From Bradymonadia bacterium (GTDB lineage Bacteria; Myxococcota_A; Bradymonadia; UBA7976; UBA1532): a DNA stretch of 64,000 nucleotides. The translations under genes and the position numbers were made by a program. The number at the start of each line of letters is the position of its first letter. The first letter of the stretch is position 1. Below the pieces are notes generated by a model. That model did not search any database, was not told where the DNA came from, and was given only the letters and a program-made list of their open reading frames with translations. Below are positions 7,063 through 60,469 of the stretch, in pieces. The stretch is from positions 32,001-96,000 of the forward strand of contig JBKAGE010000070.1 of NCBI GenBank assembly GCA_046290225.1, read 5' to 3'.

Positions 7063-7063
<1 letters not shown>
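5729..7063 (-). CDS. DUF1552-family Tat-exported protein
   Basis: Twin-arginine signal MRRRSFLKLAAGAG; RRLIVFYFPDG, SVDQ, MACGLTRV, GTMLDNSLVL, HLHDNMPFVLAGG motifs; translationally coupled (TGATG) to the upstream DUF1592 gene. Confidence 0.88.
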
Positions 7064-9531
<2,468 letters not shown>

Positions 9532-9619
9532 GGTCTTCGACCTTCCTCTGCCACCCTGTTGCCACACAGGTGTCACAAAACAACTTCCATCAGCACTGGA
9601 TCCACATATCATGTGGGCC

Positions 9620-10345
9620 ATGGCTCAAGACAAAAAGAAGCGCAAGTCCTCCCCTGAACAGCGCCCTTCAGCGCGCGAGCAGCTCGAGGCGACCCTCGAG
9701 ACCTTGCCCGATCACACCCGGGTGGTGCTGGTGGCCAACCTCAAGGGCGGCACGGGTAAGACCACGTTGTCGACCCACCTCGCCGCTTGGATGGCCAACA
9801 CCGGCCAGGTGACCGCCCTCGCCGATCTCGATCCGCAACGCAGCGCCTTGAAGTGGCTCGGCCGCCGCGACATCACTCAACCACCGATCTTCGCCATCGA
9901 CGCCTGCCAGGGCGAGGCGATCCCGCAAGAGGCCGAGTGGTTGATCCTCGATGGCCCCGCGGGCATCTCCGATGCGGTGCTCAAGCCCGCTGTGGACGCA
10001 GCAGATGTCGTGTTGATACCGGTGCTGCCTTCGGTCTTCGACGAGGGGGGTACGGCGCGGCTGATGACCGCGCTCAACGGCTTGAAGCGTTTCCGCAAGG
10101 GCAAGGTGAAGGTGGGCCTCGTGGCCAACCGCATCAAGGCCCGCTCACGGGCAGCCCGACGCATCGAGGCGTGGATGGCGCTGCAGAGCGTGCCCGTGGC
10201 TGGTCAACTCAGAGACTCGTCGCTCTATGCAGATGGCGCCATGAACGGCTCGGCCCTCTTCGATCTGGCACCCTCGCGCATCCGCACGCACATGGCCGAC
10301 TGGGCCTCGATTGTCGACTTCGTTCAAGAGCCTCGCGACGACTGA
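9620..10345 (+). CDS. ParA-family ATPase (orphan, no adjacent parB)
   Basis: Deviant Walker A KGGTGKTT, DLDPQRS, LILDGPAG, ADVVLIPVLPS. Confidence 0.88.
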   Translation: MAQDKKKRKSSPEQRPSAREQLEATLETLPDHTRVVLVANLKGGTGKTTLSTHLAAWMANTGQVTALADLDPQRSALKWLGRRDITQPPIFAIDACQGEAIPQEAEWLILDGPAGISDAVLKPAVDAADVVLIPVLPSVFDEGGTARLMTALNGLKRFRKGKVKVGLVANRIKARSRAARRIEAWMALQSVPVAGQLRDSSLYADGAMNGSALFDLAPSRIRTHMADWASIVDFVQEPRDD

Positions 10346-42188: not shown

Positions 42189-42376
42189 GGGCTCCGGAGC
42201 TACGGTCACGTTCGCGGGCTCGGCCTGAGGGGGATTTGGGAGAGGAGTACGGAGCTTGGGGGAGGCGGATTTGGGGCTGGTGTGGTGTTTTTTGGGCGCG
42301 CTCACTATTTTGCCCCGCGTTGATCTGACGCGGGACTTGCCTTCTGAACGCTGATCATCCCCTCGAACCCTTTCTG

Positions 42377-43672
42377 TTGAGTCTGGCGGGCTTCTTGATG
42401 GAGCACGGCTGCCCCACACATCGCCTGGAGCAGGTGGTGGTGATGACGGCCGAGCTTCATGAAGTGCGGGCAGAGGTCTTCGCGGTGCCCACCGGGCTCT
42501 GGATGAGCCTGAATTTGCCCAATGGCGAGGTGAACACCCGCATGCTCCGCGTACACACGTGGACAGTGGATCTCGGAGCGCTCTCGGCGGCGGATGAAGT
42601 GTTCAACGAGGTGATGGATCGCAGGTTGTCTCTGCAGGCGGGCTGTGATCGCCTGGCTGAATTGCGAGCGGCCCGCCGCGGGCCTGGGCCCTGGGGTGCG
42701 GCGCTGGCGGGGTTGGTGGCCTCTGCTTCGGCCTCGCTGTTGTTCGGAGGCCGTTGGCTGGAGGCTCTCGCAGGTGGGGTGCTGGGCGGGACGGCCCTGG
42801 CCCTCGGCGCATGGCTGGGGCGCAATCGCTCGACGCGCTTGCTGATGGATTTCGCATTTGGAGCCCTGGCAGGCTTTGGCTCTGGAGGTGTGGTCCTGCT
42901 GGCGGAGTCTCTGAGCCTGCCGGTGGAGCCCAAGGCGGTGCTCTTGTCGGGGCTGATCGTCTTCGTGCCCGGCCTCACGCTGACGGCGGGCCTGTCGGAG
43001 CTGGCCCACAAGAACCTCGTGAGCGGGACGGCCCGCCTGCTGGACGCCATCGTGGTGCTGCTGTTGTTGCTGTCGGGGGTCGCAGGGGCTCTGGCGATTC
43101 TGCCGCCGGTGGGCGCGAGCGCGCTGCCGCACGCCCAGTTGGACCCGCTGATGCTGTTGGGGCTCCAGAGCGCTGCGATCCTCTGCGCAGGTGGGGGATT
43201 CCTGGCCCTCTTTGCGGTGCCCCGTGGGCAATGGGTGTGGGTGCTGCTGGGCTGCCTCCTTGCCTTCGGTGGAGAGCGCCTGGGCAGCACGCTGCTCAAG
43301 CACGCAGCAGCGGGTGCCTTTGCAGGCACGCTGTGTTTGGGGCTGTACGCCAACATGCTGGCCCGTATTCGGCAACGTCCAGCTCAGGTGTTTCTGGTGC
43401 CGGGGCTGGTGTTGCTGGTGCCCGGCGCCTTCGGCTTCATCAGCTTCGGACAGTTGCTCCGCGGTGAGGTGGCTGGTGGGGTATCGGGGGTGTTCACCAC
43501 GCTGGTGGTGGCCTCGGCCTTGGTGCTGGGCCTTCTGGTGGCGAACGCCGCGCTCCCCTCACGGAAAGTACCTCTGGCTGCCCGGCTGCGGCCGCCTGCG
43601 CCGCGATGCGCGGCGCAGGCGGCCGCGAACGTGACCTCCGCTCCTCCGCGGGCTCGGCCTGATGTGGGTTGA
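42377..43672 (+). CDS. Threonine/serine exporter (ThrE family)
   Basis: EHGCPTHRLE, IVFVPGLTLTAGLSELAHKNLVSGTARL, LVPGLVLLVPG; about 10 hydrophobic helices. Confidence 0.88.
   Translation: MSLAGFLMEHGCPTHRLEQVVVMTAELHEVRAEVFAVPTGLWMSLNLPNGEVNTRMLRVHTWTVDLGALSAADEVFNEVMDRRLSLQAGCDRLAELRAARRGPGPWGAALAGLVASASASLLFGGRWLEALAGGVLGGTALALGAWLGRNRSTRLLMDFAFGALAGFGSGGVVLLAESLSLPVEPKAVLLSGLIVFVPGLTLTAGLSELAHKNLVSGTARLLDAIVVLLLLLSGVAGALAILPPVGASALPHAQLDPLMLLGLQSAAILCAGGGFLALFAVPRGQWVWVLLGCLLAFGGERLGSTLLKHAAAGAFAGTLCLGLYANMLARIRQRPAQVFLVPGLVLLVPGAFGFISFGQLLRGEVAGGVSGVFTTLVVASALVLGLLVANAALPSRKVPLAARLRPPAPRCAAQAAANVTSAPPRARPDVG
43588..43626. repeat. Perfect 18-bp inverted repeat (hairpin)
   Basis: GCGGCCGCCTGCGCCGCG-ATG-CGCGGCGCAGGCGGCCGC. 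Confidence 0.9.
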
Positions 43673-43686
43673 GGAGGGACAGTTTA

Positions 43687-44331
43687 TCAGGGCTGGCAGA
43701 AGACAGGGTTTTTGATGAAGTACTGGCCTGTGACGAGAGTGAACTCTCCTGTGACCACGACATCCTTGTTGCGCCCCTCGATGGGGTAGCAGACCTCGGT
43801 CTCGTCACCTCGGGCTTGGAATCGTTTGGGATTCTTCTCGTCGGTGAAAGCGAGGGTTTCCTGGCTGGTCTTGCTGCCGAGGACCATGTCGCCGCTGCAG
43901 GTGTTGCAACAGGGCATGTCACAGGCCATCTCGGTGCAGCCGGCGTTGGCCACCAGAGTGCCGCTGTAGATGACGGTCGAGCCGACCTTGGGCGGCTGGC
44001 GGAGATCGACGCCCGTGAATGGCTCCGCCTTGATGTCGGCAACACACTTGGCAACCTTCTCGGCAGCAGGGCAGCCCTTGTCCTTCTGGCACTGCACCTT
44101 GGGTGGCTCCGCCGCAGGGGCTGGCGCGTCGGCCTTTGCTGATGGGTTGGCTGTGGCCTGATCTGCTGGTGTGCTGGGCTTGGCCTTGTCGGCCGGGGTG
44201 TCTGCAGCCTTCTTGCCACCTGTGGCTTTGTTGTCTGCTGTCTTGTTATCAGCCGCTTTGTCGTCCTGGGCCTTCTTCCCACAAGCAAAGGTGCCAACAG
44301 ACAACAAAACGCATACGAGCAGAGTCTTCAT
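43687..44331 (-). CDS. Hypothetical lipoprotein with Ala/Lys/Asp-rich linker and Cys-rich OB-fold-like domain
   Basis: MKTLLVCVLLSVGTFAC lipobox; ADNK repeats; CTEMACDMPCCNTC motif. Confidence 0.72.
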   Translation of the reverse strand: MKTLLVCVLLSVGTFACGKKAQDDKAADNKTADNKATGGKKAADTPADKAKPSTPADQATANPSAKADAPAPAAEPPKVQCQKDKGCPAAEKVAKCVADIKAEPFTGVDLRQPPKVGSTVIYSGTLVANAGCTEMACDMPCCNTCSGDMVLGSKTSQETLAFTDEKNPKRFQARGDETEVCYPIEGRNKDVVVTGEFTLVTGQYFIKNPVFCQP

Positions 44332-46202: not shown

Positions 46203-46821
46203 CTTGCACTCCCACGTAACTTCACGGCTCTCACGTGTGTATCACGACAACCGAGGAACGTCCGACATGCCACATGATGCGGAGTGGCAGGTGGCCATGC
46301 ATGGTTTTGATGCTCTGTCCCTCGCTGAACGTGCCGATGTGACGGCGCGTATCGAGGCGGTGAGGCACCATGTTGACGGCGGAGAGCGATCTCGACGCCC
46401 TCGAAGCGGCGGCTGAAGGTCCCATCATCTGGGGCAACCAGGACGCCCTTGAGACCACACTCGCTCACCAGTTTGGCCACGAGATCGACATCGTGACGTG
46501 GTTTGAAGATGTAGGGAAATGAATGGGGCAACGCACACAGGTGCGCACAAAAATACGCACCCATAACCTTTCGTTTTCTCAGCGCTTCCTCTCAGTGCCA
46601 CCTCGAATACTCACGCCCTTGACCCTCATGTCACCCCCGCGACATCGAAAATGGCGGCATGTGCATATGGTTTTTCGCACCTGAATCATCATTCAGTACC
46701 TCTTGAGGCCTCGCACCACACCCATACCTTTGTTTTTATAACGTTTACTCGCCACACTGCGCCGCCGGCATGATTCCAGCATGAGGCCGGGCCTTCATCT
46801 GAGTGCATATGCGAGGCGTGC

Positions 46822-49800
46822 ATGATCCCCCCAGCAGCGAGCACCTCCCAAAACACCCTCTTCACTGTGTTGCCCACTCTGGGCGCCTGGCAAGACCGGG
46901 CCGTGAGCACCCTCGCCACCGGCGCCGCCGTCGTGCTCGACCTCGGTGATCGCCCTGTGGATGTCGCCGCCGCCCCGACCCACGCGTCGCTGTGGTGGCG
47001 CGTAGGCAGTCATCGCAGCGCCGACCTCGCCGCGTTGCTCGACCGTGGCGGCCGCGCTGAGGGGCTGTGGATTGCAGCGGGTCATCGCTTCGAGGATGTA
47101 CAGGTGGCCGTGGCGCAGCTGAAGCGCCGTGCCCCGAGCCGGCCCATCGCCGTGGAGGTCCTCTCCCGTCAGGAGGCAGAGGCTGCGATGGCCGCCGGGG
47201 CCACCATGGTGGTCTGCAAGGGCCTCGAGGCCGGCGGCTTCATCGGCGAAGAGAGCATCTCCGTGCTCACCCGAGCCTGCGCCGAGGTGGCCCCCATGGT
47301 GGTGGCCTGGGGTGGCGCTGGCCCTGATAGCGTCGCCGCCTTGAAGGCGCTCGGTGCATGTGGGGCGGTCCTCGCAGACGCCCTGATGCTCGCCTCGGAT
47401 GCCCCCACCGGCGAGGCCCTGCGCAAGATTCTGCATCGCTTCGACCCTCGAGACACCCGCACACTCGGCCGACAGTTCAACCGCCGCCTCGGGGTCTTCG
47501 CACAGCTGGGCACCCGGCCTGTACGGGCGCTCGAAGCTGAAGCCGCAAGCCTCTTCAAGGGCCACGAGGCGCAAGGGGCTGAGCAGTTCTGGGGCCAGGT
47601 CCGTGACACCCTCGCCGACGATGTGTCGACCTGGAACCCGAAGACGCACGTGCTCGCCCTTGGTCAGGAGGCCGCCCTCGCCCGCCACCTGATGGCCGCC
47701 GTGGGCGCCGAGGGCACCACCGCCGATCTGGTGAGCCATGTGCAGCGCGTCACCGCGGAGATCGAGGCCGGCGTCGCCGCCGACTTCCCGCTCCAGGCAG
47801 GCGCAGGCATCTGCCGCACCAACGGCACCGTCCTGCCGATTCATCAGGGCCCCATGGCCCAGACCAGCGACGTGCCGGCCTTCGCCGAAGCCGTGGCCCG
47901 TGCCGGCGCCATGCCCTGGCTGGCCCTGGCGAACATGCCCACCCACGTCGCCGAGAAGCTCATGGTGGAGACCGCGGCCCGCCTCGGCGATCTGCCCTGG
48001 GGTGCCGGCATCATCGGCCTCGAGGCCAACCCCTACCGCGACGCCCACATCGAGCTGATCAAGAAGTACCGGCCTCAGAGCGCCCTCGTCGCAGCGGGCA
48101 CCACGGAGCAGGCGCAGCAGATCGAGAACTTCGGGGTGCCCAGCTGGCTGCACACCCCGACGCCGAACCTGGTCCAGGGGGCCCTGGCCGCCGGGGCCAC
48201 CCGATTGATTCTGGAGGGCAGCGAGGCGGGCGGCCACGTGGGCACCCTCGGCGGGCTGCTGCTCTGGCAGCTCGGCGCTCTGGAGATGATGGCCGCCATC
48301 GACGAGGGCGTTGCTCAGGCCGACGCCCTCGCCGTGACCCCCGCAGGGGGCATCGGCGACGCTCGATCTGCAGCGGCGGCCGCCACGGTGATGTGGCGTC
48401 TGCATCGCCGCGGCGTGGCTGTGGGCGTGCAGATGGGCACCGCCTACCTCATGACCGAGGAGATCGTCTCCACCGGCGCCCTCACGGCGTACTACCAGAC
48501 CGCCGCCATGCAGGTGGGGCAGACCGTGCTCATGGGCGAGTCGGTGCGCACGCCCACCCGCGTGCTCGACACGCCTCAGGCCACTCGGGTGCTCGCCCGA
48601 GAGGTGGCCCGCGAGGTGGCTCGGGCGCCCCTGGGCGAGCGCAAGTCGGCCTATGAGCACGACAACCTCGGCGGCCTCCGCGCCGCGGCGAAGGGCCAGA
48701 AGATCGACAAGATCATCCCAGGCCAGGGGGCGCTGTTCTGTCCGATCCCCATCGATGAGCAGCAGGACACCGGGCTGTTCCACATCGGCCAGGGTGTGGC
48801 CCTCGTGAAGGGCACCACCACCATGGCCGCCCTGCACCACGACGTCACCGAGGGTGCCCGGGCCGTGATGGCCGGCGAGGCCCCTCGACAGCAGCGGAGC
48901 GTCCCCACCGAGCATGCGGCGCCTTCTGCTCTGGCAGCGAGCGCGCCCGAGGGAGCCATCGCCATCGTCGGCGTCGGCTGCTGCCTGCCCGATGCCCTCA
49001 CCGTGGAGCAGTTCTGGCGCAACCTCATCGAGGGCCACAGCGCCATCGGCGAGGTCCCCGAGTCACGGTGGTCCACTGATCTGTTCTACAACGCAGATCC
49101 CAAGGCTGAAGATCGCACCTACAGCCGCATCGGCGGCTTTGTGCGGGACTTCAAGTTCGACCGCAAGGCCTTCCGCCTCCCGCCGAAGGTGGTCTCCCGC
49201 ATCGACGTGGGGCAGCAGTGGGCCCTCGAGGCCACTCGGCAGGCCCTCACCGACGCCGGGCTCTATGGCGACGACGCCAAGGCCTTCGACCGCAGTCGCT
49301 GCGCAGTCATCCTCGGCAACGCCATGGGGGGTGATACCCGCGACCTCACGAACTTCCGCTTGAACATGCCAAGGTTCCTGCAGGCCCTCGACGGGGTGCT
49401 CACCGAGGTGGATCCGGAGCTGGGTCGCCGGCTGCAGGCCATGAAGTCCGATCTCGAGGCCCGCTTGAAGGTGGGGCAGCTGGTGGTGGACGAAGACGCC
49501 ATGCCCGGGGAGCTGTCGAACATCGTCGCCGGTCGCGTGGCCCAGGTCTTCGATCTGCATGGCCCCAACTTCACCACCGACGCCGCCTGCGCCAGCAGCA
49601 TGGCTGCCCTGCAGGGGGCCATCGAGGGTCTGCGCAGCAAGCGCTTCGACATCGCCGTCTCTGGTGGCGTCGACAGCAGCATGGGCATGCCTGCCTATGT
49701 GAAGTTCTCGAAGATCGGCGCCCTCTCGGCCACGGGCTCGCGGCCCTTCGACGCCGGCGCCGATGGCTTTGTGATGGGTGAGGGCGCCGCGGTCCTGGTG

Positions 49801-52800
49801 CTCAAGCGCCTCGACGACGCCATCACTGATGGCGATCAGATCTACGCGGTCATCCGCGGCATCGGCGGCTCGAGTGACGGCAAGGGCAAGGGCATCACCG
49901 CGCCGAACCCTCGCGGCCAGGCCCTGGCGCTGCGCAACGCCTCGGAAGACGCCGGGGTGAGCCTCGGCACCCTACAGATGGTGGAAGCCCACGGGACCTC
50001 CACCCGGGTGGGGGATCGCACCGAGGTGGAGGTGCTCACGCAAGCGTTCACCGAGGCCAAAGACGCAGTGGCTCCCGGCTCGGTGGCTCTGGGCTCGGTG
50101 AAGTCGATGCTCGGCCACCTGAAGGGGGCCGCCGGCGCCGCAGGGGTGCTCAAGACCGCCCTGGCGCTGTATCACGAGACGATCCCCCCGTCGCTCAATT
50201 TCGAGCGCCCCAACGAAGCGCTGCTCACAGAAGGCAACCCCTTCTCCGTACCCACGTCGCCCAAGGCCTGGGCTGCCGCTGGCACGCCGCGCCGTGCCGG
50301 CGTGAGCGCCTTCGGCTTCGGCGGCACCAACTTCCACGTAATCCTGGAAGAAGCGCCGAGGGCGGGCGTCTACACCGATGGTGACGCAGTGCCCTCCACC
50401 CATGATTTCGCCACCCCTTCGGCACCGGCCTCCATGGCCGCCGCCGAAGCCTCAGCGCCAGCCGTCACGCACGCAGCCGCGCCTGCTCAGAAAGAATCGA
50501 TCTCCATGACCAGCGCTCAGACCCCCGCCGCCGATCACGAGGCCATCTACGCTCGCATCCTCGAGGTGCTGTGCACGCGGACGGGCTACGACGCCGACGA
50601 GATCGAGCCCGACTTCGAACTCGAGGCCGATCTGGGCATCGACACCGTCAAGCAGGCGGAGATCATGGCCGAGGTCCGCAAGGTCTACGGTCTGCCCCGT
50701 GACGAGACCTTCAAGCTCGCTGATTACCCCACGCTCCAAGCCATGACTCAGTACGTGGTCAAGATGACCGGCGGTGTTGCACCTGCTTCGGAGCTGGCTG
50801 CAGCGCCGACAGCACCCGCAACGCCTGCAGCGCCCGTCACAACGCCTGTGGTGGCCACGCCGGCCGCACCAGAGGCACCTGTGGCAGCGGACCCTGTTGC
50901 AGCAAACCCTGTTGCAGCGAACCCTGCTGCGGACAACGAGGCCATCTACGCTCGCATCCTCGAGGTGCTGTGCACGCGGACGGGCTACGACGCCGACGAG
51001 ATCGAGCCCGACTTCGAACTCGAGGCCGATCTGGGCATCGACACCGTCAAGCAGGCGGAGATCATGGCCGAGGTCCGCAAGGTCTACGGTCTGCCCCGTG
51101 ACGAGACCTTCAAGCTCGCTGACTACCCCACGCTCCAGGCCATGACTCAGTACGTGGTCAAGATGACCGGCGGTGCTGCACCTGCCGCGGAGGCTTCTTC
51201 TGCCCCCGCAGCAACAGCAGCGCCTGTGACGGAAGCGCCCTCAGCAGCTCCTGCTGCGCGTCCGGCGTGGTGGGGCTACCTGCCTGTCACCGTCACCGCT
51301 GATCGCCCCGAGGCCCTCGACCGGGCCATTGCTGATCTGCTCACCGCCCTTGGTGCCCGCGGCGAAGCCGCTCTGGAAGACGCCCGACGCCCTGCCCTGG
51401 ACGCCACGGCGCTCCGGGCCCAGTGCCGACTGACCTGCCCCGTGCCCCCCGGTGATGTCGCTGGTGCCACCAAGGCCCTCGACAGCGCCCTCAACACGCT
51501 GCGGACCGGCAAGGGCAAGCGCGTGCTCGAGGCTCGGGGCATCAGCCTGCGTCTCACCGCCCCCAGCGGAGCCAGGACCGCGTTCCTGTTCCCTGGGCAG
51601 GGCTCGCAATACACCGGCATGCTCTCCGATCTTCGGGGGGACTTCCCGGTCATCGACGAGGTCCTCGCCGAGGCCGACAAGATCATGGTCCCCCTGTTGG
51701 GCCACAAGCTGTCGACCTACTTCGATCCTCAGCAGCCCGAGCTGGTCATCGCCGGGGAACGCCGCAGCGCCGACGAGGCTCTGCGCCAGACCCAGATCAC
51801 CCAGCCCGCCATGCTCACCGCCGACATCGCCATGTTGCGCGTGATCGAAGGCTTCGGCCTCGCCCCCGACGTGGTGGCCGGGCACTCCCTGGGCGAGTAT
51901 GCCGCCTGCGTCGCCGCGGGCATGCTCGCCCTCGCCGACGGCCTGCAGACCGTGTCCACCCGGGGCACCGCCATGGCCCAGGCCACCCCCATGGGCGGCG
52001 ACTGTGGCCTCATGGCTGCCATCCCCGCCGGGGTGACCCAGATCCAGGGCATCCTGGACGCGTGCAGCGGCTATGTCATCGCCGCCAACAAGAACAGCCC
52101 CGCCCAGACGGTCATCGCCGGCAGCACCGAGGGCGTGCAGGAGGCCCTGGCAAAGCTCGCCGAGGCGGGCTTCGACGGCATGCTCATCCCCGTGAGCCAT
52201 GCCTTCCACTCCGAGGTGGTGGCCAGCGCCTCGGTGCCCCTCACCGCCCACCTGAAGTCCATCGACGTGAAGGCTCCGGCGATCCCCGTGCTGAGCAACG
52301 TCACCGCAGAGTACTTCCCGAGCAACCGAGCGCAGATCATCGATCTGCTCGGGGTGCAGGTGGCCCGCCCGGTGGAGTTCATCGGCATGGTGGAGCGCAT
52401 GTACGCCGACGGCGTGCGCACCTTCGTGGAGATCGGCCCCAAGCGGGCTCAGACGGGCTTCGTGAACAGCATCCTCGGTGATCGCCCCCACCGGGCCCTG
52501 TGCACCAACCACCCCAAGTTCGGCGGCCCCACCACGCTGCGGACCGCCCTCGCCGGCGCCGTGGCCGAGGGCATCGCCCTGCAGCCCTGGTCTGCAGATC
52601 GCCGCGCCATCAAGCTCAACGCAACCGCGGCAGCCTCTGTGGCCCCTGCGCCCATGGCGGCAGCGCCTGCGCCGAGCGCACCCGCAGTGACCGCCTCGCA
52701 GCCCACCGTCGGTGAGCCCGTGGTGGTGAGCGGCCTCACCGCTGCCCTCCCAGGCCGCGAGCGGCTCTTCACCGACGAAGACCCCTTCGAGCGGATCCTC

Positions 52801-55800
52801 AACGGCGAGAACCTCATCTCGGAGATCCCCGAGGCCGCCCGCCGCAACATGGCCAACAAGGCCATCACCCGCCTGGTGAAGAACAAGGACGGCGGCGGCG
52901 AGCTCGTGCCCGTGGACAACCCCGACGAGATGATCCACCTCGCCGGCCAGCTCGGCGATTACGATCTCATCGAGGACTTCGGGGTGCCCGCCGATCTGGT
53001 GAAGGCCCTCGACCGCGCCACGGGCGCCGCTTTGGGTTGCGGCCTCGACGTGCTCCGCGACGCCGGCCTGCCCATGATCCCCCACGAGCGGGTGACCCGG
53101 AGTGGCCGCAAGCTCAAGGTGGGCTGGCGACTGCCGGAGGTCATCGGTGATCGCACCGGCGTGATCTTCGCCTCGGCCTTCGCCGGTGAAGATGTGATGA
53201 TGGACGAGCTGAGCCGCCACATGGAGGCCCAGTTCGCCACCCGCACCGAGGCCGCCCGGGCCACCCTCGCCGAGCGCATGCTGCAGGCCCTGCCCGACGC
53301 TGAGAGCCGCGCCCGCATGCAGGCCCTCATCGACGAGGCCATCCCTGCTCAGGATCCGGCGGAGCTGTTCCAGTTCAACCGCCAGTACCTCGTGCAGATC
53401 CTCGGCCTCGGGGCCAGCCGCTTCGCGGAGTTCGTCGGCGCCCGCGGGCCCAACCTGCACATGAACATCGCCTGCGCCTCCACCACCGGGGCCGTGGCCA
53501 TCGCCAACGACTGGATCGCCCAGGGCCGCGCCGATCGCGTGGTGATCCTCGGCGCCGACGACGTCACCCGCGGGCACCTGCTCGAGTGGGTGGGCTCCGG
53601 CTTCCTCGCCGTGGGCGCCGCCACCAACGTCAAGGATGTCGCCGAGGGTGCCCTGCCCTTCGATGCCCGTCGCAACGGCATGATCGTCGGCGGCGGCGCA
53701 GTGGCTCTGCTGGTGGAGAAGGAGTCCGAGGTCCGAGCCCGAGGCATGTGCCCCGTGGCCGAGGTGGTGGCGACGCATCTGGTGAACAGCGCCATGCACC
53801 CCACCCGCCTCGACGTGGATCACGTGGCCCGGGAGGTGGGCGCCCTGATGACCGCCGCTGAGGCCAGGAAGCCCGGCCTCGATCGCCACGAGATCGCCTC
53901 GAAGACGGTCTTCATGAGCCACGAGACCTACACCCCCGCCCGAGGGGGCAGCGCCGCAGCGGAGATCGAGGCCCTGCGCCGCACCTTCGGCGACGCAGCC
54001 AACAGCGTGGTCATCGCCAACACCAAGGGCTTCTCGGGCCACCCCATGGGGGCGGGCATCGAAGACGCCGTGGTGCTCAAGGGCATGCAGCGCCAGAAGC
54101 TGCCCCCCATCGCCAACTTCAAGGTGCCTGATCCCACTCTGGGCGATCTCCGGCTCAGCCAGGGCGGCCCCCACGAGCTGCAGTACGCCCTGCGCCTCGC
54201 CGCGGGCTTCGGTTCTCAGCTCGCGCTGGTGCTCTACCGGGCCATGAGCACGATCCACACGCACCCCAACGAGGACCGCGTGGACGATCGGGCCCTGTAC
54301 CGCCGCTGGGTGGGCAGCCTCATCGGCGCCGACCAGGCTGAGGTCGAGGTGGTGAAGCGCGTGCTCCGGGTGCTGCCGATGAAGGCCGCCCAGCCCGAGG
54401 CCCCGGCCCCCACCACGGTGACGCCCGGAGTCCCTGCGCCTCAGCAGGTGATCCAGCCTGTAGCGGCGGCCCCTGCGGCCACCGCTCAGGGTGAGGCGGC
54501 GATCTACGGCACGCTGCTCGAGGTGCTCTGTGAGCGCACCGGCTACGACGCTGACGAGGTGGAGCCGGAGTTCGAGCTCGAGGCCGACTTGGGCATCGAC
54601 ACCGTCAAGCAGGCGGAGATCATGGCCGAGGTCCGCAAGGTCTACGGCCTGCCCCGCGACGAGTCCTTCAAGCTCGCCGACTACCCCACGCTCAAGGCCA
54701 TGACCGCTTACGTCATCAAGATGACTGGCGGTGCAAAGGCTGCAGCGCCAGCCGTCGAGGCGGCCCCGGCAGCACCTGCGCCCAAGGCCCCTGTGGCCAG
54801 GGTGCAGCTGGCTCAGGCCCCCGCTCCTGCCCCCGTCAAGGCTCAGCCTCCCATCGTCGAGGTGAACCCCGTAGCCGATCCCCGCGTGGTGGAGGCCCCT
54901 ACGGTCGAGACGCCTGCAGTGCTGGAGCCCAAGGGCATCGAGCGCCGTCTGGTCACCGTGAACGAGGGCCCGGGCATCGCCCCTGATCCTCAGCGGCTGC
55001 GCCAGCAGGTCGCTGGCCGCACCGTGGCCCTCGTCGGCGGCCCCGAAGGTCTCACCGAGACCCTCGCCAAAGCCCTCGCCGAGGCCGGCGCCCGCACGGT
55101 GACTCTCCCCCTCCCCACGGGGGGCGACATCGACGCCTGGACCGCCCACTTCGAGGGCGTGCTCTCCGGCGTCACCGGCGTCATCCAGATGCTGGGCTAC
55201 AGCCCTGTGGATGGCCCCGAGGGCGTCTACCGCCAGGGCGCCCTCACCTTCGCTCTGGCCAAGGCCCTGCGTCGGCAGCAGCCTGCAGGGGGCTTCTTCA
55301 TCACCCTCACCAGCATGGGCGGCCGCTTGGGCTTCGGTCAGGGGAACGGCACCCTGCCCCTCGGCGGCGCCGTGGCCGGTGTCACCAAGAGCCTGAGCCG
55401 CGAGTGGGCCGAGGCCCGCGTTCGCGTCATCGACCTCGAGCCTGGAGTGGTGTTCCACGGCCTGGGTGAGCTGGTGCTCGCCGAGGCGTTCTCCGACCGC
55501 CACGAGGTAGAGGTGGGCATCCGCGGCGGCCAGCGCTTCACCGTGCGGGAGACCGCGCTCTCGGTGAGCGGGCCCTCCCCCATGGGCGTGCGCCTCAACC
55601 CCACCTCGGTGATCCTCATCACTGGGGGCGCCGGGGGCATCACCGCCCGCATCGCCGGCGACATCGCCCGGCGCACTGGGGCCCGGCTGGCCCTCGTGGG
55701 CCGCACCGCCCTCACCCACGCCGATCCGCGTAGCATCGACCTCGAGCAGGAGAAGGCCCGTATCAAGGCTGATCTCAAGGCCCGCGGCGAGCGCGCCACG

Positions 55801-58392
55801 CCCATGGCGGTGCAGAAGGCCATCCGCCCTCTGGCTCGCCAGCAGGAGATCGCCGGGATCATCGACGCCCTCAAGGCCGAAGGGGCCGCCGACGTGGCCT
55901 ACTTCAGCGCCGACACCTCCGATGGGGCCGCCCTCGAGACCGTGGTCCGAGAGGTGCGTCAGCGCTTCGGCCGCATCGACGGGGTCATCCACGGCGCCGG
56001 TGTGGAGATCAGTCGCCGCATCGAGGAGAAGCCCGGGGCGGAGTTCGACCGCGTGTTCCGGGGCAAGGCCCTCGGCGGGCTGCACCTGTGGCGCCTCACT
56101 GGTGAGCAGCGGATCGCAGGCGAGGGCCCATTGTCGTTCTTCGTCACCTTCAGCTCCGTCGCTGGCCGCTACGGCAACGCCGGCCAGGCGGACTACAGCG
56201 CCGCCAACGAGGTGCTCAACAAGCTCGTGGCCCAGGTGAACGCCGGGGGCAAGGCCCAGATCGCCTTGTCGCTGGACTGGACCGCCTGGGACGAGGTAGG
56301 CATGGCGGTGCACGGCTCGATGAAGCAGATCCTCACCGCCGCAGGGGTGGAGCTGCTGCCCCCTGAGGTGGGCGCCCCCATGGTGGGTGACCTGCTCGAG
56401 TCGGGCATCTGGGGTGAGGTGGTCATCGCCGGCCGCCTCGGCCAGCTCGGGGGCAAGACCCCCGTGGCCCCGCCGGTGGCCTTGCCCGATCTCAGCCGCA
56501 GCCCCTTCCTCGATGCCATCGTCCGGTACACCCCGGGCCAGAGCCTCGAGGCGAGCCGCACCCTCGACCTGACCCGCGATCACTGCCTGCGGGGCCACAT
56601 CTACGACGGCGTGGCCCTGGTGCCCGGGGTCATCGGCATGGAGATGATGGCCGAGGCCGCTCGGGCGCTGTTCCCGCGCCTGGCCTTCATCGGGGTGGAC
56701 GATCTCGACTTCGCCGCCGCCCTCAAGCTGCACCGGGGCGAGCCTGTGGAGGTCCGCGTCGACGTCGAGGCTCTGCCCGCCGTCGAGGGTGAGGCCGCTC
56801 AGCTCGTGAAGGCCTCGGTCCGTTCGGTGCGCACCAACCGCGCCGGTCGCACCCTCGAGGCAGAGCACTTCCGCTCCATCGTGCGCCTCGGCGGTCTCGC
56901 CGACCCCGCGCCGGAGCCGTTGCCTTTCGACACCGAGGATGCCTTCCGGGTGGGCCCTGATCAGCACGTGCTCTACCAGCGCATGTTCCACAGCGGGGTC
57001 TTCGAGGTCATCACCGACATCCCCTTCGTGGGCGACAAGGCGGTCATCTGCCGCGGCCGGCTCCCCGGCGCAGCCCTCACCGAGGGTGGCCTCGATGACG
57101 ACGCCATCACTGATCCGCTGGTCCGGGAGATGGCCTTCCAGACTGCTGGCCTGTGGGGGATCATCTGGCACAAGCGCCAGTACCTGCCCCTCAAGGCACG
57201 CCAGATCCGGCAGTACCAGCGCCACCTGCCCGAGGGCGGGGAGCTGGTCATCCGGGCCCGTCTCATCGAGGGCGGCCCGGAGAAGGCCGTGCTCGACGTG
57301 GAGGTGGTCACCCTCGACGGCCGGCTGATCCAACGCCTGCACGGCCTGGAGATGATCGGCCACCGTCCCCTGGCGGAGCACGAGATCCTCAACGTGGGCC
57401 CTCAGCGCCCGGTCATCGGCCGCACCCTCGAGGTCGAAGACATCCGCGTGTGGATGGGTGGCCTGGGCAAGATCATCGACGACACCCTCACCCCCGAGGA
57501 GCGCGCCGAGTGGGCCCGTCTGCGGCACCCTGATCGTCGTATGGACTGGCTCGCAGGCCGGATGGCGGCCAAGTCCCTCGTCTGTGACTACGTACGGGAC
57601 TTCATGGGCCAGGGCATCGACCCCGAGCGGGTGCAGATCACTCGGACCGAGGCGGGGCAACCCGTGGTGCGGTTCCACCCGCCGGAGAAGGCCCCCGGCC
57701 GACCCCCGGCCCTCACCATCAGCCACTCCAGCGGCACCGCCCTCGCCGTGCTCGCCCTGTCGCCCAACCTACGACCTGGGGTGGACATCGAGCGGGTGCA
57801 GCCCCGGAGCGAGGCCTTCATCGCCGACTACTTCACCGAGGCCGAGGCCGCTCTCGAGATCCCCGGGGCCATCAGCCGCGACGAGCGCATCACCGCGCTC
57901 TGGGCCCTCAAAGAGGCAGTGACCAAGGCCCTGGGCACCGGTCTCGCGGTGAGCACCTCGGACATCACCATCGAGTCCATCACCCCCACCCGAGAGGGCA
58001 ACACCCTCGAGGGTCAGGCTCAGATCAGCCTGAAGGGCGACGCGCTGAGGGCATACGACGCGCTGGAAGGCCAGGCCCTCACCGCCACGGTCACCCTCGT
58101 GGGGGCCTTTGCCCGGGCGCTGGTCTGCCTCACCAGCGAGCTGCCCCTCGACCCGCCGGCGGCGCAGGTTGCCCCTGTGGAGCCTGTCGCCGATGTACCC
58201 GTCGGTGAGCCCACCGCCGAGCCCGCCCCGGCCCCCATCGCTGATCGCCACGTGGAGCGCGCCACCCACGCCGAGGGGCAGACCCTCGCCGTGCGGCCTG
58301 CGCTCGACGACAACCTCAAGGCGGCCATCGCCGCCCTCTTGTTCGACCGCGGCCTGTTGAGCCACGGCCTGCGCCCCGGGAGCAAACGATGA
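46822..58392 (+). CDS. Iterative type I PKS/FAS-like megasynthase: ER(FabK/PfaD-like x2)-KS-ACP-ACP-AT-KS-ACP-KR-DH-PPTase
   Basis: ER: LPIHQGPM, EGSEAGGHVG, AGGIGD, VQMGTAYL; KS1: DAACASS, EAHGTST, GHLKGAAG; ACP x3: EADLGIDTVKQAEI; AT: FPGQGSQY, GHSLGEY, HAFHS; KS2: NIACAST, SHETYT, GHPMGAG; KR: TGGAGGI, FSSVAGRYGNAGQADYSAAN; DH: HIYDGVALVPG; PPTase: ISHS, GVDIE, WALKEAVTKA. Confidence 0.93.
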   Translation: MIPPAASTSQNTLFTVLPTLGAWQDRAVSTLATGAAVVLDLGDRPVDVAAAPTHASLWWRVGSHRSADLAALLDRGGRAEGLWIAAGHRFEDVQVAVAQLKRRAPSRPIAVEVLSRQEAEAAMAAGATMVVCKGLEAGGFIGEESISVLTRACAEVAPMVVAWGGAGPDSVAALKALGACGAVLADALMLASDAPTGEALRKILHRFDPRDTRTLGRQFNRRLGVFAQLGTRPVRALEAEAASLFKGHEAQGAEQFWGQVRDTLADDVSTWNPKTHVLALGQEAALARHLMAAVGAEGTTADLVSHVQRVTAEIEAGVAADFPLQAGAGICRTNGTVLPIHQGPMAQTSDVPAFAEAVARAGAMPWLALANMPTHVAEKLMVETAARLGDLPWGAGIIGLEANPYRDAHIELIKKYRPQSALVAAGTTEQAQQIENFGVPSWLHTPTPNLVQGALAAGATRLILEGSEAGGHVGTLGGLLLWQLGALEMMAAIDEGVAQADALAVTPAGGIGDARSAAAAATVMWRLHRRGVAVGVQMGTAYLMTEEIVSTGALTAYYQTAAMQVGQTVLMGESVRTPTRVLDTPQATRVLAREVAREVARAPLGERKSAYEHDNLGGLRAAAKGQKIDKIIPGQGALFCPIPIDEQQDTGLFHIGQGVALVKGTTTMAALHHDVTEGARAVMAGEAPRQQRSVPTEHAAPSALAASAPEGAIAIVGVGCCLPDALTVEQFWRNLIEGHSAIGEVPESRWSTDLFYNADPKAEDRTYSRIGGFVRDFKFDRKAFRLPPKVVSRIDVGQQWALEATRQALTDAGLYGDDAKAFDRSRCAVILGNAMGGDTRDLTNFRLNMPRFLQALDGVLTEVDPELGRRLQAMKSDLEARLKVGQLVVDEDAMPGELSNIVAGRVAQVFDLHGPNFTTDAACASSMAALQGAIEGLRSKRFDIAVSGGVDSSMGMPAYVKFSKIGALSATGSRPFDAGADGFVMGEGAAVLVLKRLDDAITDGDQIYAVIRGIGGSSDGKGKGITAPNPRGQALALRNASEDAGVSLGTLQMVEAHGTSTRVGDRTEVEVLTQAFTEAKDAVAPGSVALGSVKSMLGHLKGAAGAAGVLKTALALYHETIPPSLNFERPNEALLTEGNPFSVPTSPKAWAAAGTPRRAGVSAFGFGGTNFHVILEEAPRAGVYTDGDAVPSTHDFATPSAPASMAAAEASAPAVTHAAAPAQKESISMTSAQTPAADHEAIYARILEVLCTRTGYDADEIEPDFELEADLGIDTVKQAEIMAEVRKVYGLPRDETFKLADYPTLQAMTQYVVKMTGGVAPASELAAAPTAPATPAAPVTTPVVATPAAPEAPVAADPVAANPVAANPAADNEAIYARILEVLCTRTGYDADEIEPDFELEADLGIDTVKQAEIMAEVRKVYGLPRDETFKLADYPTLQAMTQYVVKMTGGAAPAAEASSAPAATAAPVTEAPSAAPAARPAWWGYLPVTVTADRPEALDRAIADLLTALGARGEAALEDARRPALDATALRAQCRLTCPVPPGDVAGATKALDSALNTLRTGKGKRVLEARGISLRLTAPSGARTAFLFPGQGSQYTGMLSDLRGDFPVIDEVLAEADKIMVPLLGHKLSTYFDPQQPELVIAGERRSADEALRQTQITQPAMLTADIAMLRVIEGFGLAPDVVAGHSLGEYAACVAAGMLALADGLQTVSTRGTAMAQATPMGGDCGLMAAIPAGVTQIQGILDACSGYVIAANKNSPAQTVIAGSTEGVQEALAKLAEAGFDGMLIPVSHAFHSEVVASASVPLTAHLKSIDVKAPAIPVLSNVTAEYFPSNRAQIIDLLGVQVARPVEFIGMVERMYADGVRTFVEIGPKRAQTGFVNSILGDRPHRALCTNHPKFGGPTTLRTALAGAVAEGIALQPWSADRRAIKLNATAAASVAPAPMAAAPAPSAPAVTASQPTVGEPVVVSGLTAALPGRERLFTDEDPFERILNGENLISEIPEAARRNMANKAITRLVKNKDGGGELVPVDNPDEMIHLAGQLGDYDLIEDFGVPADLVKALDRATGAALGCGLDVLRDAGLPMIPHERVTRSGRKLKVGWRLPEVIGDRTGVIFASAFAGEDVMMDELSRHMEAQFATRTEAARATLAERMLQALPDAESRARMQALIDEAIPAQDPAELFQFNRQYLVQILGLGASRFAEFVGARGPNLHMNIACASTTGAVAIANDWIAQGRADRVVILGADDVTRGHLLEWVGSGFLAVGAATNVKDVAEGALPFDARRNGMIVGGGAVALLVEKESEVRARGMCPVAEVVATHLVNSAMHPTRLDVDHVAREVGALMTAAEARKPGLDRHEIASKTVFMSHETYTPARGGSAAAEIEALRRTFGDAANSVVIANTKGFSGHPMGAGIEDAVVLKGMQRQKLPPIANFKVPDPTLGDLRLSQGGPHELQYALRLAAGFGSQLALVLYRAMSTIHTHPNEDRVDDRALYRRWVGSLIGADQAEVEVVKRVLRVLPMKAAQPEAPAPTTVTPGVPAPQQVIQPVAAAPAATAQGEAAIYGTLLEVLCERTGYDADEVEPEFELEADLGIDTVKQAEIMAEVRKVYGLPRDESFKLADYPTLKAMTAYVIKMTGGAKAAAPAVEAAPAAPAPKAPVARVQLAQAPAPAPVKAQPPIVEVNPVADPRVVEAPTVETPAVLEPKGIERRLVTVNEGPGIAPDPQRLRQQVAGRTVALVGGPEGLTETLAKALAEAGARTVTLPLPTGGDIDAWTAHFEGVLSGVTGVIQMLGYSPVDGPEGVYRQGALTFALAKALRRQQPAGGFFITLTSMGGRLGFGQGNGTLPLGGAVAGVTKSLSREWAEARVRVIDLEPGVVFHGLGELVLAEAFSDRHEVEVGIRGGQRFTVRETALSVSGPSPMGVRLNPTSVILITGGAGGITARIAGDIARRTGARLALVGRTALTHADPRSIDLEQEKARIKADLKARGERATPMAVQKAIRPLARQQEIAGIIDALKAEGAADVAYFSADTSDGAALETVVREVRQRFGRIDGVIHGAGVEISRRIEEKPGAEFDRVFRGKALGGLHLWRLTGEQRIAGEGPLSFFVTFSSVAGRYGNAGQADYSAANEVLNKLVAQVNAGGKAQIALSLDWTAWDEVGMAVHGSMKQILTAAGVELLPPEVGAPMVGDLLESGIWGEVVIAGRLGQLGGKTPVAPPVALPDLSRSPFLDAIVRYTPGQSLEASRTLDLTRDHCLRGHIYDGVALVPGVIGMEMMAEAARALFPRLAFIGVDDLDFAAALKLHRGEPVEVRVDVEALPAVEGEAAQLVKASVRSVRTNRAGRTLEAEHFRSIVRLGGLADPAPEPLPFDTEDAFRVGPDQHVLYQRMFHSGVFEVITDIPFVGDKAVICRGRLPGAALTEGGLDDDAITDPLVREMAFQTAGLWGIIWHKRQYLPLKARQIRQYQRHLPEGGELVIRARLIEGGPEKAVLDVEVVTLDGRLIQRLHGLEMIGHRPLAEHEILNVGPQRPVIGRTLEVEDIRVWMGGLGKIIDDTLTPEERAEWARLRHPDRRMDWLAGRMAAKSLVCDYVRDFMGQGIDPERVQITRTEAGQPVVRFHPPEKAPGRPPALTISHSSGTALAVLALSPNLRPGVDIERVQPRSEAFIADYFTEAEAALEIPGAISRDERITALWALKEAVTKALGTGLAVSTSDITIESITPTREGNTLEGQAQISLKGDALRAYDALEGQALTATVTLVGAFARALVCLTSELPLDPPAAQVAPVEPVADVPVGEPTAEPAPAPIADRHVERATHAEGQTLAVRPALDDNLKAAIAALLFDRGLLSHGLRPGSKR
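50537..51185 (+). repeat. Near-identical ~250-bp internal duplication (ACP1/ACP2) plus 15-bp linker microrepeat
   Basis: 50537-50786 versus 50936-51185 (offset 399 bp), three mismatches seen; GCAGCxxACCCTGxT x3 at about 50884-50928. Confidence 0.9.
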
Positions 58393-58895
58393 GTCGTTAT
58401 GTGGTCAAGATGCCCGGGGGTCAGCCGATCCCCGTCCGTCTCACTGCGGGGCCCCGGGGCTGGTCTGCAGAGGTGGAAGACGGCGCCCACTGGCTGAAGC
58501 TGGTGCACTTCGACGGACAGGACGCGGTGTGTGTGGAGATCGACGGCGATCGATACGAGCTGTCGCTGAGCCGCGACTTCGGCGATGTGGAGATCGCCCC
58601 GGCGACGCTGCCCCCCACCACCCACAAGCCCCGGCCCAAGGCCATCGCGGCCCCTGGGGACTTCACCAGCACCATCACCGGCGCGGTGCTGGAGATCTGC
58701 GTGGGCCCCGGCGATCACGTGCAGCCCGGTGATCCCCTGGTGGTCATCGAGGCCATGAAGATGGAGAACACGCTGTGCGCCCCCCGAGCGGGCACCATCG
58801 TGGCGATCTCTGCCCGTCAGGGCGACACTGTCCGCAAGGGCGAAACCCTGCTGGTCCTGGGGCCCCCGCCCCTCGACCCCCCCACCATGCACTGA
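58389..58895 (+). CDS. Biotin carboxyl carrier protein
   Basis: IEAMKMEN biotinylation motif; VGPGDHVQPGDPLVV; ATGA overlap with the megasynthase stop. Confidence 0.92.
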   Translation: MSRYVVKMPGGQPIPVRLTAGPRGWSAEVEDGAHWLKLVHFDGQDAVCVEIDGDRYELSLSRDFGDVEIAPATLPPTTHKPRPKAIAAPGDFTSTITGAVLEICVGPGDHVQPGDPLVVIEAMKMENTLCAPRAGTIVAISARQGDTVRKGETLLVLGPPPLDPPTMH

Positions 58896-58909: not shown

Positions 58910-60469
58910 ATGTCAGTGAGTGAAGATCCCCGACTCAAGGCGGCCCACAGCGAGGGCCTGCAGACGCCGAAGGCCCCTCAAGGCACGGCACAGGCCCCTC
59001 AGACCAAGGCGCGCCCCGAGGCCCGGGCCATGCACCGCCTGATCCGGCTGTTCGATCCCGGCACCTTCGAGGAGATCGGATCACAGGTGACCCACCGGTG
59101 CACCGATTACGGCCTCGAGAAGAAGCAGCACCCCGGCGATGGCGTGATCACCGGCTTCGGTGAGATCGACGGCCGCACGGTCTGCGCCTACGCCCAAGAT
59201 CGCACCGTGCTCGGTGGCTCTCTCGGCGAAGCCCACGCCCAGAAGATCACCGCCCTGCAGGACATGGCCCTGCGCATCGGCGCCCCTCTGGTGGCCCTGA
59301 ACGATTCTGGCGGCGCCCGTATCCAAGAGGGCGTGAACAGCCTCGGAGGCTACGGCGAGATCTTCCGCCGCCACGTGGCGGCCTCGGGCGTGATCCCACA
59401 GATCGCCCTGGTCCTGGGCCCCTGCGCCGGCGGCGCGGTGTATGCCCCGGCCCTGATGGACTTCGTGGGCATGGTGGATCACGGCGCCTACATGTTCCTC
59501 ACCGGCCCTCGGGTGGTGAAGACGGTGACCTTCGAAGACGTGACCCCCGAGGCCCTCGGCGGTGGCGAGGTCCACGCCACCCAGACCGGCGTGTCGCACT
59601 TTCTGTTCCCCGACGAAGAGGCAGCCATCGATCACGTACGGCAGCTGCTGAGCTACCTGCCGGGCCGTCAGGGCGATCCGTTGCCTGATCACGAGCCCAC
59701 TGATCCAGTGAACCGTATCAGCGCTGATCTCGAGTCACTCGTGCCCGCAGATCCGCGTCAGCCGTACGACGTGCGCCTGGTCATCGACGAGATCCTCGAC
59801 CGCGACAGCTTCCTCGAGGTGCACCCCCTCTGGGCCCAGAACGTGGTGGTGGGCTTCGCCCGCCTCGGCGGCAAGGTGGTGGGGGTCATCGCCAACCAGC
59901 CCCTGCACCTCGCCGGCGTGCTCGACATCGACTCCAGCCGCAAGGCCGCCCGCTTCATTCGCACCTGCAACGCCTTCGGGGTACCCCTGGTGAGCCTCGT
60001 GGACGTACCCGGGTTCCTGCCCGGCGTAGATCAGGAGCACGGCGCGGTCATCGATCACGGCGCCAAGCTGCTCTACGCATACTGCGAGGCCACGGTGCCC
60101 AAGCTGAGTGTGGTGCTGCGCAAGGCCTACGGCGGCGCATACATCGTCATGAGTTCGAAGCACGTAGGCGGTGACGCCAACCTGTCCTGGCCTCAGGCGG
60201 AGCTGGCGGTGATGGGCGCCCCCGGCGCGGTGCAGATCCTGAACCGCAGGGAGCTCGCCGCTCACCCTGAGCCTGCCACCCGTCAGAAGGAGCTGGAGGA
60301 GGAGTACAAGGATATGTACTTGTCACCGGCTCGGGCAGCCTCTCGTGGCTACCTCGACGAGATCATCGACCCGGCTCAGACACGGCGGAAGCTGTACCGC
60401 TATCTGAAGGCGCTGGGCTCGAAGCAAGAGTCTCTGCCTGCGAAGCGCAACGGGAACGCACCTCTCTGA
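58910..60469 (+). CDS. Acyl-CoA carboxylase carboxyltransferase subunit (PccB/MmdA-like)
   Basis: PGDGVITGFG, DSGGARIQEG, GPCAGGAVY, VDVPGFLPG, RKAYGGAY, KRNGNAPL; GAGGAG RBS. Confidence 0.95.
   Translation: MSVSEDPRLKAAHSEGLQTPKAPQGTAQAPQTKARPEARAMHRLIRLFDPGTFEEIGSQVTHRCTDYGLEKKQHPGDGVITGFGEIDGRTVCAYAQDRTVLGGSLGEAHAQKITALQDMALRIGAPLVALNDSGGARIQEGVNSLGGYGEIFRRHVAASGVIPQIALVLGPCAGGAVYAPALMDFVGMVDHGAYMFLTGPRVVKTVTFEDVTPEALGGGEVHATQTGVSHFLFPDEEAAIDHVRQLLSYLPGRQGDPLPDHEPTDPVNRISADLESLVPADPRQPYDVRLVIDEILDRDSFLEVHPLWAQNVVVGFARLGGKVVGVIANQPLHLAGVLDIDSSRKAARFIRTCNAFGVPLVSLVDVPGFLPGVDQEHGAVIDHGAKLLYAYCEATVPKLSVVLRKAYGGAYIVMSSKHVGGDANLSWPQAELAVMGAPGAVQILNRRELAAHPEPATRQKELEEEYKDMYLSPARAASRGYLDEIIDPAQTRRKLYRYLKALGSKQESLPAKRNGNAPL

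Follow-up and report, generated by a model that had tools for sequence, protein, structure and literature searches.

Threonine at the cofactor position of the acyl carrier domains in a two-ketosynthase, fatty-acid-type synthase that encodes its own phosphopantetheinyl transferase

In annotation practice, a carrier domain that lacks the conserved serine is treated as dead. What, then, is to be made of a synthase in which every carrier domain has threonine in that place? Such a protein is encoded in a 64,000-nucleotide stretch of a Bradymonadia genome (GenBank assembly GCA_046290225.1, contig JBKAGE010000070.1, positions 32,001 to 96,000), here called the window, which contains no N. The synthase is a single open frame of 3,856 amino acids (46822-58392, + strand) with the domain order ER1-ER2-KS1-ACP-ACP-MAT-KS2-ACP-KR-DH-PPTase (ER, enoyl reductase; KS, ketosynthase; ACP, acyl carrier protein; MAT, malonyl-type acyltransferase, AT; KR, ketoreductase; DH, dehydratase; PPTase, phosphopantetheinyl transferase). 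Pfam assigns to it three PP-binding stretches and KS, AT, KR and DH domains; the ER region gives two NMO-type matches, and the C terminus a domain of the ACPS family. Sequence comparison makes it likely that this is a working iterative fatty-acid-type synthase and that its own PPTase attaches phosphopantetheine to the threonine of its ACPs. We favor threonine-linked phosphopantetheinylation because threonine stands at the cofactor position and is fixed in the family, the catalytic sites are conserved, and the PPTase is co-inherited.

Threonine in the carrier domains and across the family

The sequence EADLGIDTVKQAEI occurs three times in the synthase, placing threonine at residues 1275, 1408 and 2594. 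A previous sequence-only reading of this DNA had reported ACC codons at 50644, 51043 and 54601 and no serine in the motif, and re-reading the sequence reproduced all of this exactly. There is no serine anywhere in the 79 residues of ACP1 or of ACP2, and a single one in ACP3, 21 residues past the threonine. In alignments with solved ACPs, the threonine falls on the serine of PigH, of a S. aureus-type ACP and of AcpM chains. An AlphaFold2 model of the ACP (pLDDT 91.6) has helices at residues 3-18, 39-53 and 69-80, with the threonine as residue 39, the first of helix II, and Foldseek matched it to solved ACPs at TM about 0.8. In excerpts of a published account, phosphopantetheine attachment is described as being to a conserved serine, and the modified serine sits at the N terminus of helix 2 (PMC2148441). 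The modeled domain has the ACP fold, a four-helix bundle with the acceptor opening helix II, but the conserved serine acceptor is missing from all three domains. Threonine occupies the cofactor position of these ACPs.

Because ACP1 and ACP2 are identical (76/76 amino acids, 226/228 nucleotides) and ACP3 matches ACP1 at 66/76 amino acids, the copies cannot be counted as independent evidence of one another. The sequence-only reading had argued that threonine in a diverged ACP3 spoke against decay; the conclusion stands, on the family-wide occurrence of threonine, but not the argument, as ACP3 has barely diverged. A decayed family, or a threonine produced by assembly error, recoding or RNA editing to serine, would be the most trivial explanation, and near-identical repeats such as ACP1 and ACP2 can mislead assemblers. 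However, one contig from an independent metagenome run has the synonymous codon ACG at 50644-50646 (at a depth of 4.4, weak alone), catalytic residues are invariant, and threonine recurs in hundreds of independent bacterial and archaeal assemblies, through four codons and at locus GC contents from 41% to 75%. This explanation is already largely refuted, and we give it next to no credence. Over 156 loci the codons were ACC (207), ACG (188), ACT (27) and ACA (21), with serine AGC twice; since ACP sequence was the seed of both locus scans, the counts inform codon choice, not the frequency of threonine.

An ACP1 search of 1.84 billion representatives gave 4,311 matches, 408 of them at E 1e-30 or better. 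The best 150 of the 4,311 contained 610 ACP domains, with threonine in 479, serine in 123 and other residues in 8, and the serine domains belonged mostly to PfaA-type proteins without KS2. A set picked by ACP1 is biased towards the query, and relatives were therefore re-picked by KS2. The window KS2 retrieved 2,615 proteins among 2,651 candidates; 119 were listed besides the query, 118 of them with ACPs, and threonine stood at 395/395 sites in these listed matches, with pairwise ACP identity down to 34%. With the KS2 region of a metagenome relative, 3,967 of 8,000 candidates were retrieved at E 1e-100, and all 392 sites were threonine in the 117 proteins with ACPs among the best 120 of the 3,967. 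The summed count, 787/787, covers top-ranked matches that are mutually related, and hence not independent events. Homologues with mostly serine, the outcome that the sequence-only reading had named as contrary to its proposal, were thus not what the two KS2-picked sets contained.

Among 206 proteins with the KS2 signature (a set found in part via the ACP), 204 have ACPs: 194 are all-threonine, 8 have threonine ACPs and an additional copy that is cut or degenerate, 2 are all-serine, and none lacks the hydroxyl. Judged from these proteins, the site is one that tolerates serine but not loss of the hydroxyl. Elsewhere in the threonine ACPs serine is not conserved, reaching at most 22% in any column. 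The two all-serine members, P0052 (named Heimdallarchaeota) and P0093, nest among threonine members in the KS1 and PPTase trees (FastTree, single-domain) and read as reversions. The threonine group is not cleanly monophyletic in the KS1 tree, where two serine proteins of another architecture, P0110 and P0120, fall inside it. Three further proteins (L054, L060 and L074) combine one serine ACP with two or three threonine ACPs in one chain, each with a single fused PPTase.

Names given by the sources to family members include Bradymonas, Persicimonas, Lujinxingia, Microvenator, Roseiflexus, Oscillochloris, Anaerolineales, Asgard archaea, Thermoplasmatota, Desulfobacter and Terriglobales, and one member comes from a cultured species, Bradymonas sediminis (WP_111334198.1). 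Asgard and Thermoplasmatota proteins (P0168, P0230, P0244, P0274, P0176, P0246 and P0256) are complete, with threonine ACPs and a fused PPTase, and the Asgard ones also have the ER pair. We also observed threonine ACPs (GIDTVKQV) in P0073, P0086 and P0092 (Myxococcota where named), which have a KS-KS-AT-ACP4 arrangement, no KS2 signature and no GHSxG match in the AT, and are possibly a separate threonine-carrier subfamily. P0002, P0100 and P0128, with threonine ACPs, fused ER and fused PPTase, have no KS2 and nest among KS2-bearing members, indicating that KS2 can be lost.

The linked PPTase and its acceptor

The sequence-only reading had recognized an Sfp-type PPTase at the C terminus from the motifs ISHS, GVDIE and WALKEA, which we located at residues 3633, 3653 and 3694. 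A structural model of the domain matched PptT (Z 18.1, rmsd 2.9 Å over 201 residues), the human enzyme (Z 16.4) and Sfp (Z 14.4), with the next unrelated fold at Z 4.9, and its C-terminal half matched the PPT domain of the fungal fatty acid synthase (FAS; Z 15.1). His3635, Asp3655, Glu3698 and Lys3702 correspond to His111, Asp129, Glu181 and Lys185 of human PPT, and at least 98% of the linked PPTases retain them. The two-domain fold, the coenzyme A (CoA)/Mg ligands and the catalytic Glu and Lys of group II (Sfp-type) PPTases are thus all present.

The PPTase is fused in 39/114 full-length relatives and in none of 80 metagenome loci. Of these loci, 29 were too short to judge; a separate PPTase gene lies within 10 kb in 46 of the remaining 51 (same strand in 45), and three of the five without one end inside a large carboxylase gene. 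The proposal that the PPTase acts in cis therefore does not describe the general arrangement, which outside the fused minority is mostly a neighboring gene, and a requirement of fusion for threonine ACPs was ruled out. Nearly every judgeable locus has a PPTase, either fused or next to the synthase, and its catalytic residues are intact. In trees, the linked PPTase follows the synthase. The 154 linked PPTases are separated in the tree from 10 stand-alone enzymes, but the outgroup is small and the support weak (0.745); the PPTase domain alone as query returned 5 proteins, too shallow a set to define a clade.

The sequence-only reading had gone further and proposed an orthogonal pair, in which, taken strictly, the fused PPTase would serve only threonine ACPs and host PPTases only serine ACPs. 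A second, stand-alone PPTase is present in 4/4 genomes examined, and the linked enzymes group apart from stand-alone ones, as just described. FabF is also found in 18/20 carriers of the synthase outside one Bradymonadia family (f6, below), so insulation could be useful. Nevertheless, the all-serine P0052 and P0093 nest among threonine members, L054, L060 and L074 mix both residues under one fused PPTase, and only AcpS-type enzymes were found in the window's genome besides the fused domain, despite its multi-domain serine carriers. Because these two all-serine and three mixed proteins carry the same kind of fused PPTase, the linked enzyme probably accepts serine as well as threonine, and the strict form of the proposal does not stand as it was put. 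At most, the barrier would be one-way, in that host PPTases may fail on threonine. For host AcpS or Sfp facing a threonine ACP, we rate strict two-way orthogonality as improbable, a one-way barrier as a little short of an even chance, and no barrier as a serious prospect ranking just below that. One of the AcpS-like genes of the window's genome (C34:447075-447533, - strand, a PPTase-profile match between glmM-like and nnr-like genes) has LAAKRA where AcpS has AAKEA and misses the N-terminal GxD motif, and is possibly a defunct AcpS. Another AcpS gene, at C78:248418-248837, has intact motifs.

Could the threonine be modified in some other way, for example by direct O-acylation, or could the cofactor be attached to another ACP residue? 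Two other threonines are conserved, 21 residues upstream (TGY, 95%) and 29 residues downstream (94%) of the acceptor site, and no PPTase adaptation to threonine was identified. However, a TGY-like motif also aligns in the serine-type ACP PigH, and its role is therefore probably a structural one. The KS domains have active sites of the standard Cys-His-His thioester type, and the PPTase keeps all of its catalytic residues and follows the synthase in trees. We regard modification of this other kind as very improbable.

Several points weigh against a threonine-linked cofactor. Foremost among them is the chemistry, as secondary alcohols are bulkier and less good nucleophiles. Searching the alignments, we found no PPTase residue that explains room for the threonine methyl. 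Arg3572, Arg3662 and Phe3666, which mark the lineage, also occur in serine members. Two of the 51 judgeable loci have no PPTase that we could find, and a contig end does not explain this. In ER-less relatives, a full reductive cycle would depend on neighbors whose role is itself presumed. Stand-alone serine ACPs in the window's genome and in the single-contig genome G035 could in principle act in trans. Lastly, in the excerpted text of a preprint, S36T of E. coli ACP serves as a loss-of-function change for IscS binding, which the authors blame on loss of the arm (bioRxiv 10.1101/2025.06.16.659903). Threonine is, on this evidence, no free substitute in an ordinary ACP/AcpS pair, and its being a poor substitute there makes a dedicated PPTase plausible.

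The same preprint and the same serine ACPs would fit threonine domains that are never modified and act as docking or structural modules, with CoA, or a separate serine ACP that the linked PPTase loads, holding the chain; the number (1-6) and position of ACPs, which vary freely in the family, are also consistent with this. Yet no stand-alone ACP gene is a recurring neighbor among clustered open reading frames of at least 120 amino acids (small ACPs would be missed), and the 80 metagenome loci yielded one serine-ACP match. The stand-alone ACP of G035 lies about 2.1 Mb away, beside a pyridoxal-phosphate enzyme, and in the 96% complete genome G030 every PP-binding match falls within the synthase. 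Moreover, an inert domain needs no hydroxyl, yet intact copies vary only between threonine and serine, and the Asp that precedes the acceptor is invariant. We consider unmodified domains distinctly unlikely, and the comparative case for threonine as the attachment residue appears strong. Small ACP-like genes with unusual motifs were also seen in the window's genome (C3:8672-8824, GAESLD; C40:39649-39843, WDSQAH).

Chain building and the place of the synthase in its hosts

The sequence-only reading had called the KS, AT, KR, DH and second-ER catalytic motifs intact, and the residues are indeed present and kept across relatives: KS1 Cys/His/His in 120/120, AT Ser and His in 120/120, KS2 Cys/His/Lys/His in 119/119, KR Tyr and Asn in 115/115, DH His in 115/115, DH Glu in 113/115, and ER2 His472 in 18/18 relatives with that domain. 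ER1 has lost its catalytic His, and the replacing residue varies among relatives. Intact catalytic residues together with family-wide threonine argue against decay. There are two KS domains, both of the Cys-His-His type, a feature that the sequence-only reading had not singled out. The best solved matches of KS2 are FabF enzymes, and the conservation of its active site ruled out KS2 as a chain length factor (CLF), i.e., an inactive KS.

If threonine is the acceptor, the PPTase would bind CoA-Mg, and Glu3698 would deprotonate the threonine hydroxyl, which would attack the beta-phosphate, as excerpts on the human enzyme describe for serine. The product would be a Thr-O-phosphodiester, and the reaction would run either in cis or between subunits. 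The adjacent carboxylase subunits would supply malonyl-CoA, and the AT would load malonyl onto the ACP thiol. The HAFH of the AT is presumably its malonyl mark. KS1 and KS2 would then condense and KR, DH and ER2 reduce, leading to a long, largely saturated acyl chain, with priming, long-chain extension or final condensation as the possible job of KS2. We found no thioesterase in the synthase, so the chain would be taken off by a separate acyltransferase or by KS2. One candidate for chain release is a GNAT acetyltransferase, whose gene comes immediately after that of the synthase at 23 genome loci (e.g., L045:13736-14320).

Most relatives have no fused ER, and none of the 80 metagenome loci has one. 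The loci of ER-less relatives often contain an acyl-CoA dehydrogenase (48/156), electron transfer flavoprotein (ETF) subunits (29 and 27) or a FabI-like gene (11), and in P0259 an acyl-CoA dehydrogenase is fused ahead of KS1, where the window protein has its ER. Just upstream of ER-less members we observed an acyl-CoA dehydrogenase gene with ETF genes near it, or a FabI-like gene (L116:8228-9904, L158:1680-2468). An enoyl reductase of the acyl-CoA dehydrogenase/ETF type, working on ACP-bound chains, is possible. From the three alternatives (fused ER, acyl-CoA dehydrogenase with ETF, and FabI-like enzyme) we infer a fully reduced acyl product. ER2 as query gave no match in five genomes with ER-less synthases, in a search without positive control, and a FabV-type search gave only two marginal matches, with no control match registered.

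Is the synthase a primary or a secondary one? In a survey of the class, in which kin are not independent and for which we offer no statistic, 25/63 genomes have the synthase. It occurs in 22/26 genomes of family f6, none of which has FabF above the cut-off; in many of the f6 genomes, large Pfa-like frames contain FabA-type domains as well. In the window's own family, 0/12 other genomes have the synthase and 11/12 have FabF above the cut-off, and the window's genome has both. Families f3 and f4 include 17 class members with neither FabF nor the synthase by the queries used here. In G035, KS1 and KS2 of the synthase account for all full KS matches, there is no FabA/Z match, and a single ER candidate was found, a stand-alone FabK-like gene with a weak match. 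In a phylum sample, 33/151 genomes match the ACP profile; the 20 outside f6 and the window's genome all have KS2 (acceptor residue not read), and 18 of them have FabF, which ruled out replacement of FAS II everywhere. The synthase would thus make a secondary lipid beside FAS II in most carriers; in f6, it is the sole candidate for making fatty acids de novo.

The positions of the domains and of the adjacent genes are collected in Table 1. No sigma-70 promoter-like site was found at 46400-47000. Elsewhere in the window, a ThrE-family exporter gene (42377-43672) coincides with a strong local AT and GC skew (42001-44000) that fits a very hydrophobic membrane protein. A gene pair at 5729-9621 (- strand), with DUF1552 (HXXSHH), DUF1592/1588/1595/1585/1587, cytochrome c and carbohydrate-binding domains, is unrelated to the synthase.

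Table 1. Domains of the synthase and adjacent genes, in window coordinates.
Feature	Position	Strand	Details
Two-KS iterative type I FAS/polyketide synthase (PKS) gene (Type R family, ER and PPTase fused)	46822..58392	+	3,856 aa
ER1, degenerate NMO/FabK-like barrel	46999..47781	+	His of EAGGH replaced by Phe140; boundaries approximate
ER2, NMO/FabK-like enoyl reductase domain	47824..48861	+	EAGGH with His472
KS1, PfaA-type ketosynthase	48955..50361	+	Cys923/His1057/His1099
ACP1	50539..50775	+	Thr1275 at cofactor site, ACC codon 50644-50646
ACP2	50938..51174	+	Thr1408, ACC codon 51043-51045; protein sequence identical to ACP1
Malonyl-type acyltransferase	51574..52521	+	GHSLGEY (Ser1689), HAFH (His1796)
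KS2, FabF-like ketosynthase	52744..54261	+	Cys2218/His2367/Lys2402/His2407 intact; 'CLF' in the 2011 annotation
ACP3	54496..54732	+	Thr2594, ACC codon 54601-54603
Ketoreductase, structural and catalytic subdomains	54994..56331	+	Tyr3125/Asn3129
PKS-type double hot-dog dehydratase	56464..57381	+	His3259, Glu3436
Group II (Sfp-fold) PPTase domain	57430..58161	+	His3635/Asp3655/Glu3657/Glu3698/Lys3702
Biotin carboxyl carrier protein gene	58389..58895	+	start overlaps synthase stop codon
Acyl-CoA carboxyltransferase gene (extender-unit supply), after biotin carrier gene	58910..60469	+	same gene order in genome G035

Meaning and relation to known systems

We found no description of threonine-linked phosphopantetheine or of the GIDT motif in open-licence PMC and bioRxiv full text. 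The family and its PPTase link have been in print since 2011, and the attachment residue is apparently undescribed. On comparative grounds we propose, tentatively and at somewhat less than an even chance, that thousands of bacterial and archaeal synthases run fatty-acid-type chemistry on threonine-linked phosphopantetheine, for which they would rely on a PPTase lineage of their own instead of host enzymes, with an overlooked primary FAS in Bradymonadales, which have been published as fatty-acid auxotrophs, and a candidate carrier-based fatty acyl route in archaea. The named hosts behind this proposal are Bradymonadales, Chloroflexota, Acidobacteriota, Desulfobacter, Asgard archaea and Thermoplasmatota. 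If it is true, a threonine-based carrier kept across two domains of life would widen the serine rule and change domain calling, and if host PPTases fail on the threonine ACP, the pair would be a ready-made tool for selective labelling or pathway insulation.

The synthase also bears on a published puzzle. According to the main text of Mu et al. 2020, as far as excerpted, Bradymonadales have neither FabB/F nor FabI/L, scavenging was inferred, and a polyketide synthase is not mentioned (PMC7460792). Named Bradymonadales proteins belong to the threonine-ACP synthase family.

The closest described systems are the Type R synthases of Roseiflexus, Koribacter, Solibacter and Elusimicrobium, with the order KS-MAT-CLF-ACP(3-6)-KR, a downstream PPTase, often acetyl-CoA carboxylase genes, and a product given as unknown (Shulse & Allen 2011, PMC3098273; the word threonine does not occur in its main text). 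The window protein is, by domain content, a fused and reordered member of these secondary-lipid synthases. It has the KS, MAT, second KS, three ACPs and KR of Type R in one protein, with the order permuted, and the PPTase, which is fused here and a separate gene within 10 kb in the 46/51 relative loci noted above. It departs from the exact KS-MAT-CLF-ACPn-KR order without ER, having two ERs and the PPTase fused and two of its ACPs ahead of the AT, and is therefore a variant of the type. Most relatives have the Type R order plus DH. The canonical order is seen in relatives at about 50% KS2 identity, and those with this order carry names such as Roseiflexus and Acidobacteria. In the KS1 tree, built without the five named Type R proteins, the window protein groups with proteins named Roseiflexus sp. 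and other Chloroflexota. Where the 2011 annotation has a 'CLF', the window protein has a KS of the Cys-His-His type, and its KR is followed by a DH.

The window protein resembles PfaA of omega-3 polyunsaturated fatty acid synthases (TIGR02813) in KS1, MAT, tandem ACPs with EADLGID, KR and DH. Its TIGR02813 score of 892 bits is below the 1010.1 cut-off, which places it outside PfaA, as does the motif, Thr-Val-Lys-Gln in the window against Ser-Ile-Lys-Arg in PfaA. Furthermore, its locus has no FabA-type DH pair and no true CLF, having instead a second active-type KS and its own ER and PPTase. The PPTase shares with Group II enzymes (Sfp, PptT, PcpS and human AASDHPPT) the two-domain fold and the catalytic His/Asp/Glu/Lys, and differs from them in its presumed threonine acceptor, in an AcpS-like RxxWLAGRxAAK helix in the N-terminal half, and in being only about 20% identical to solved enzymes. 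Finally, in encoding its own PPTase domain, the synthase is like the alpha subunit of fungal FAS. Azotobacter ArsA/ArsD likewise is self-priming with a built-in PPTase, and both of these systems use serine carriers. The window's family differs from such self-priming FAS and PKS in that fusion of the PPTase is optional, being present in 39/114 full-length relatives.

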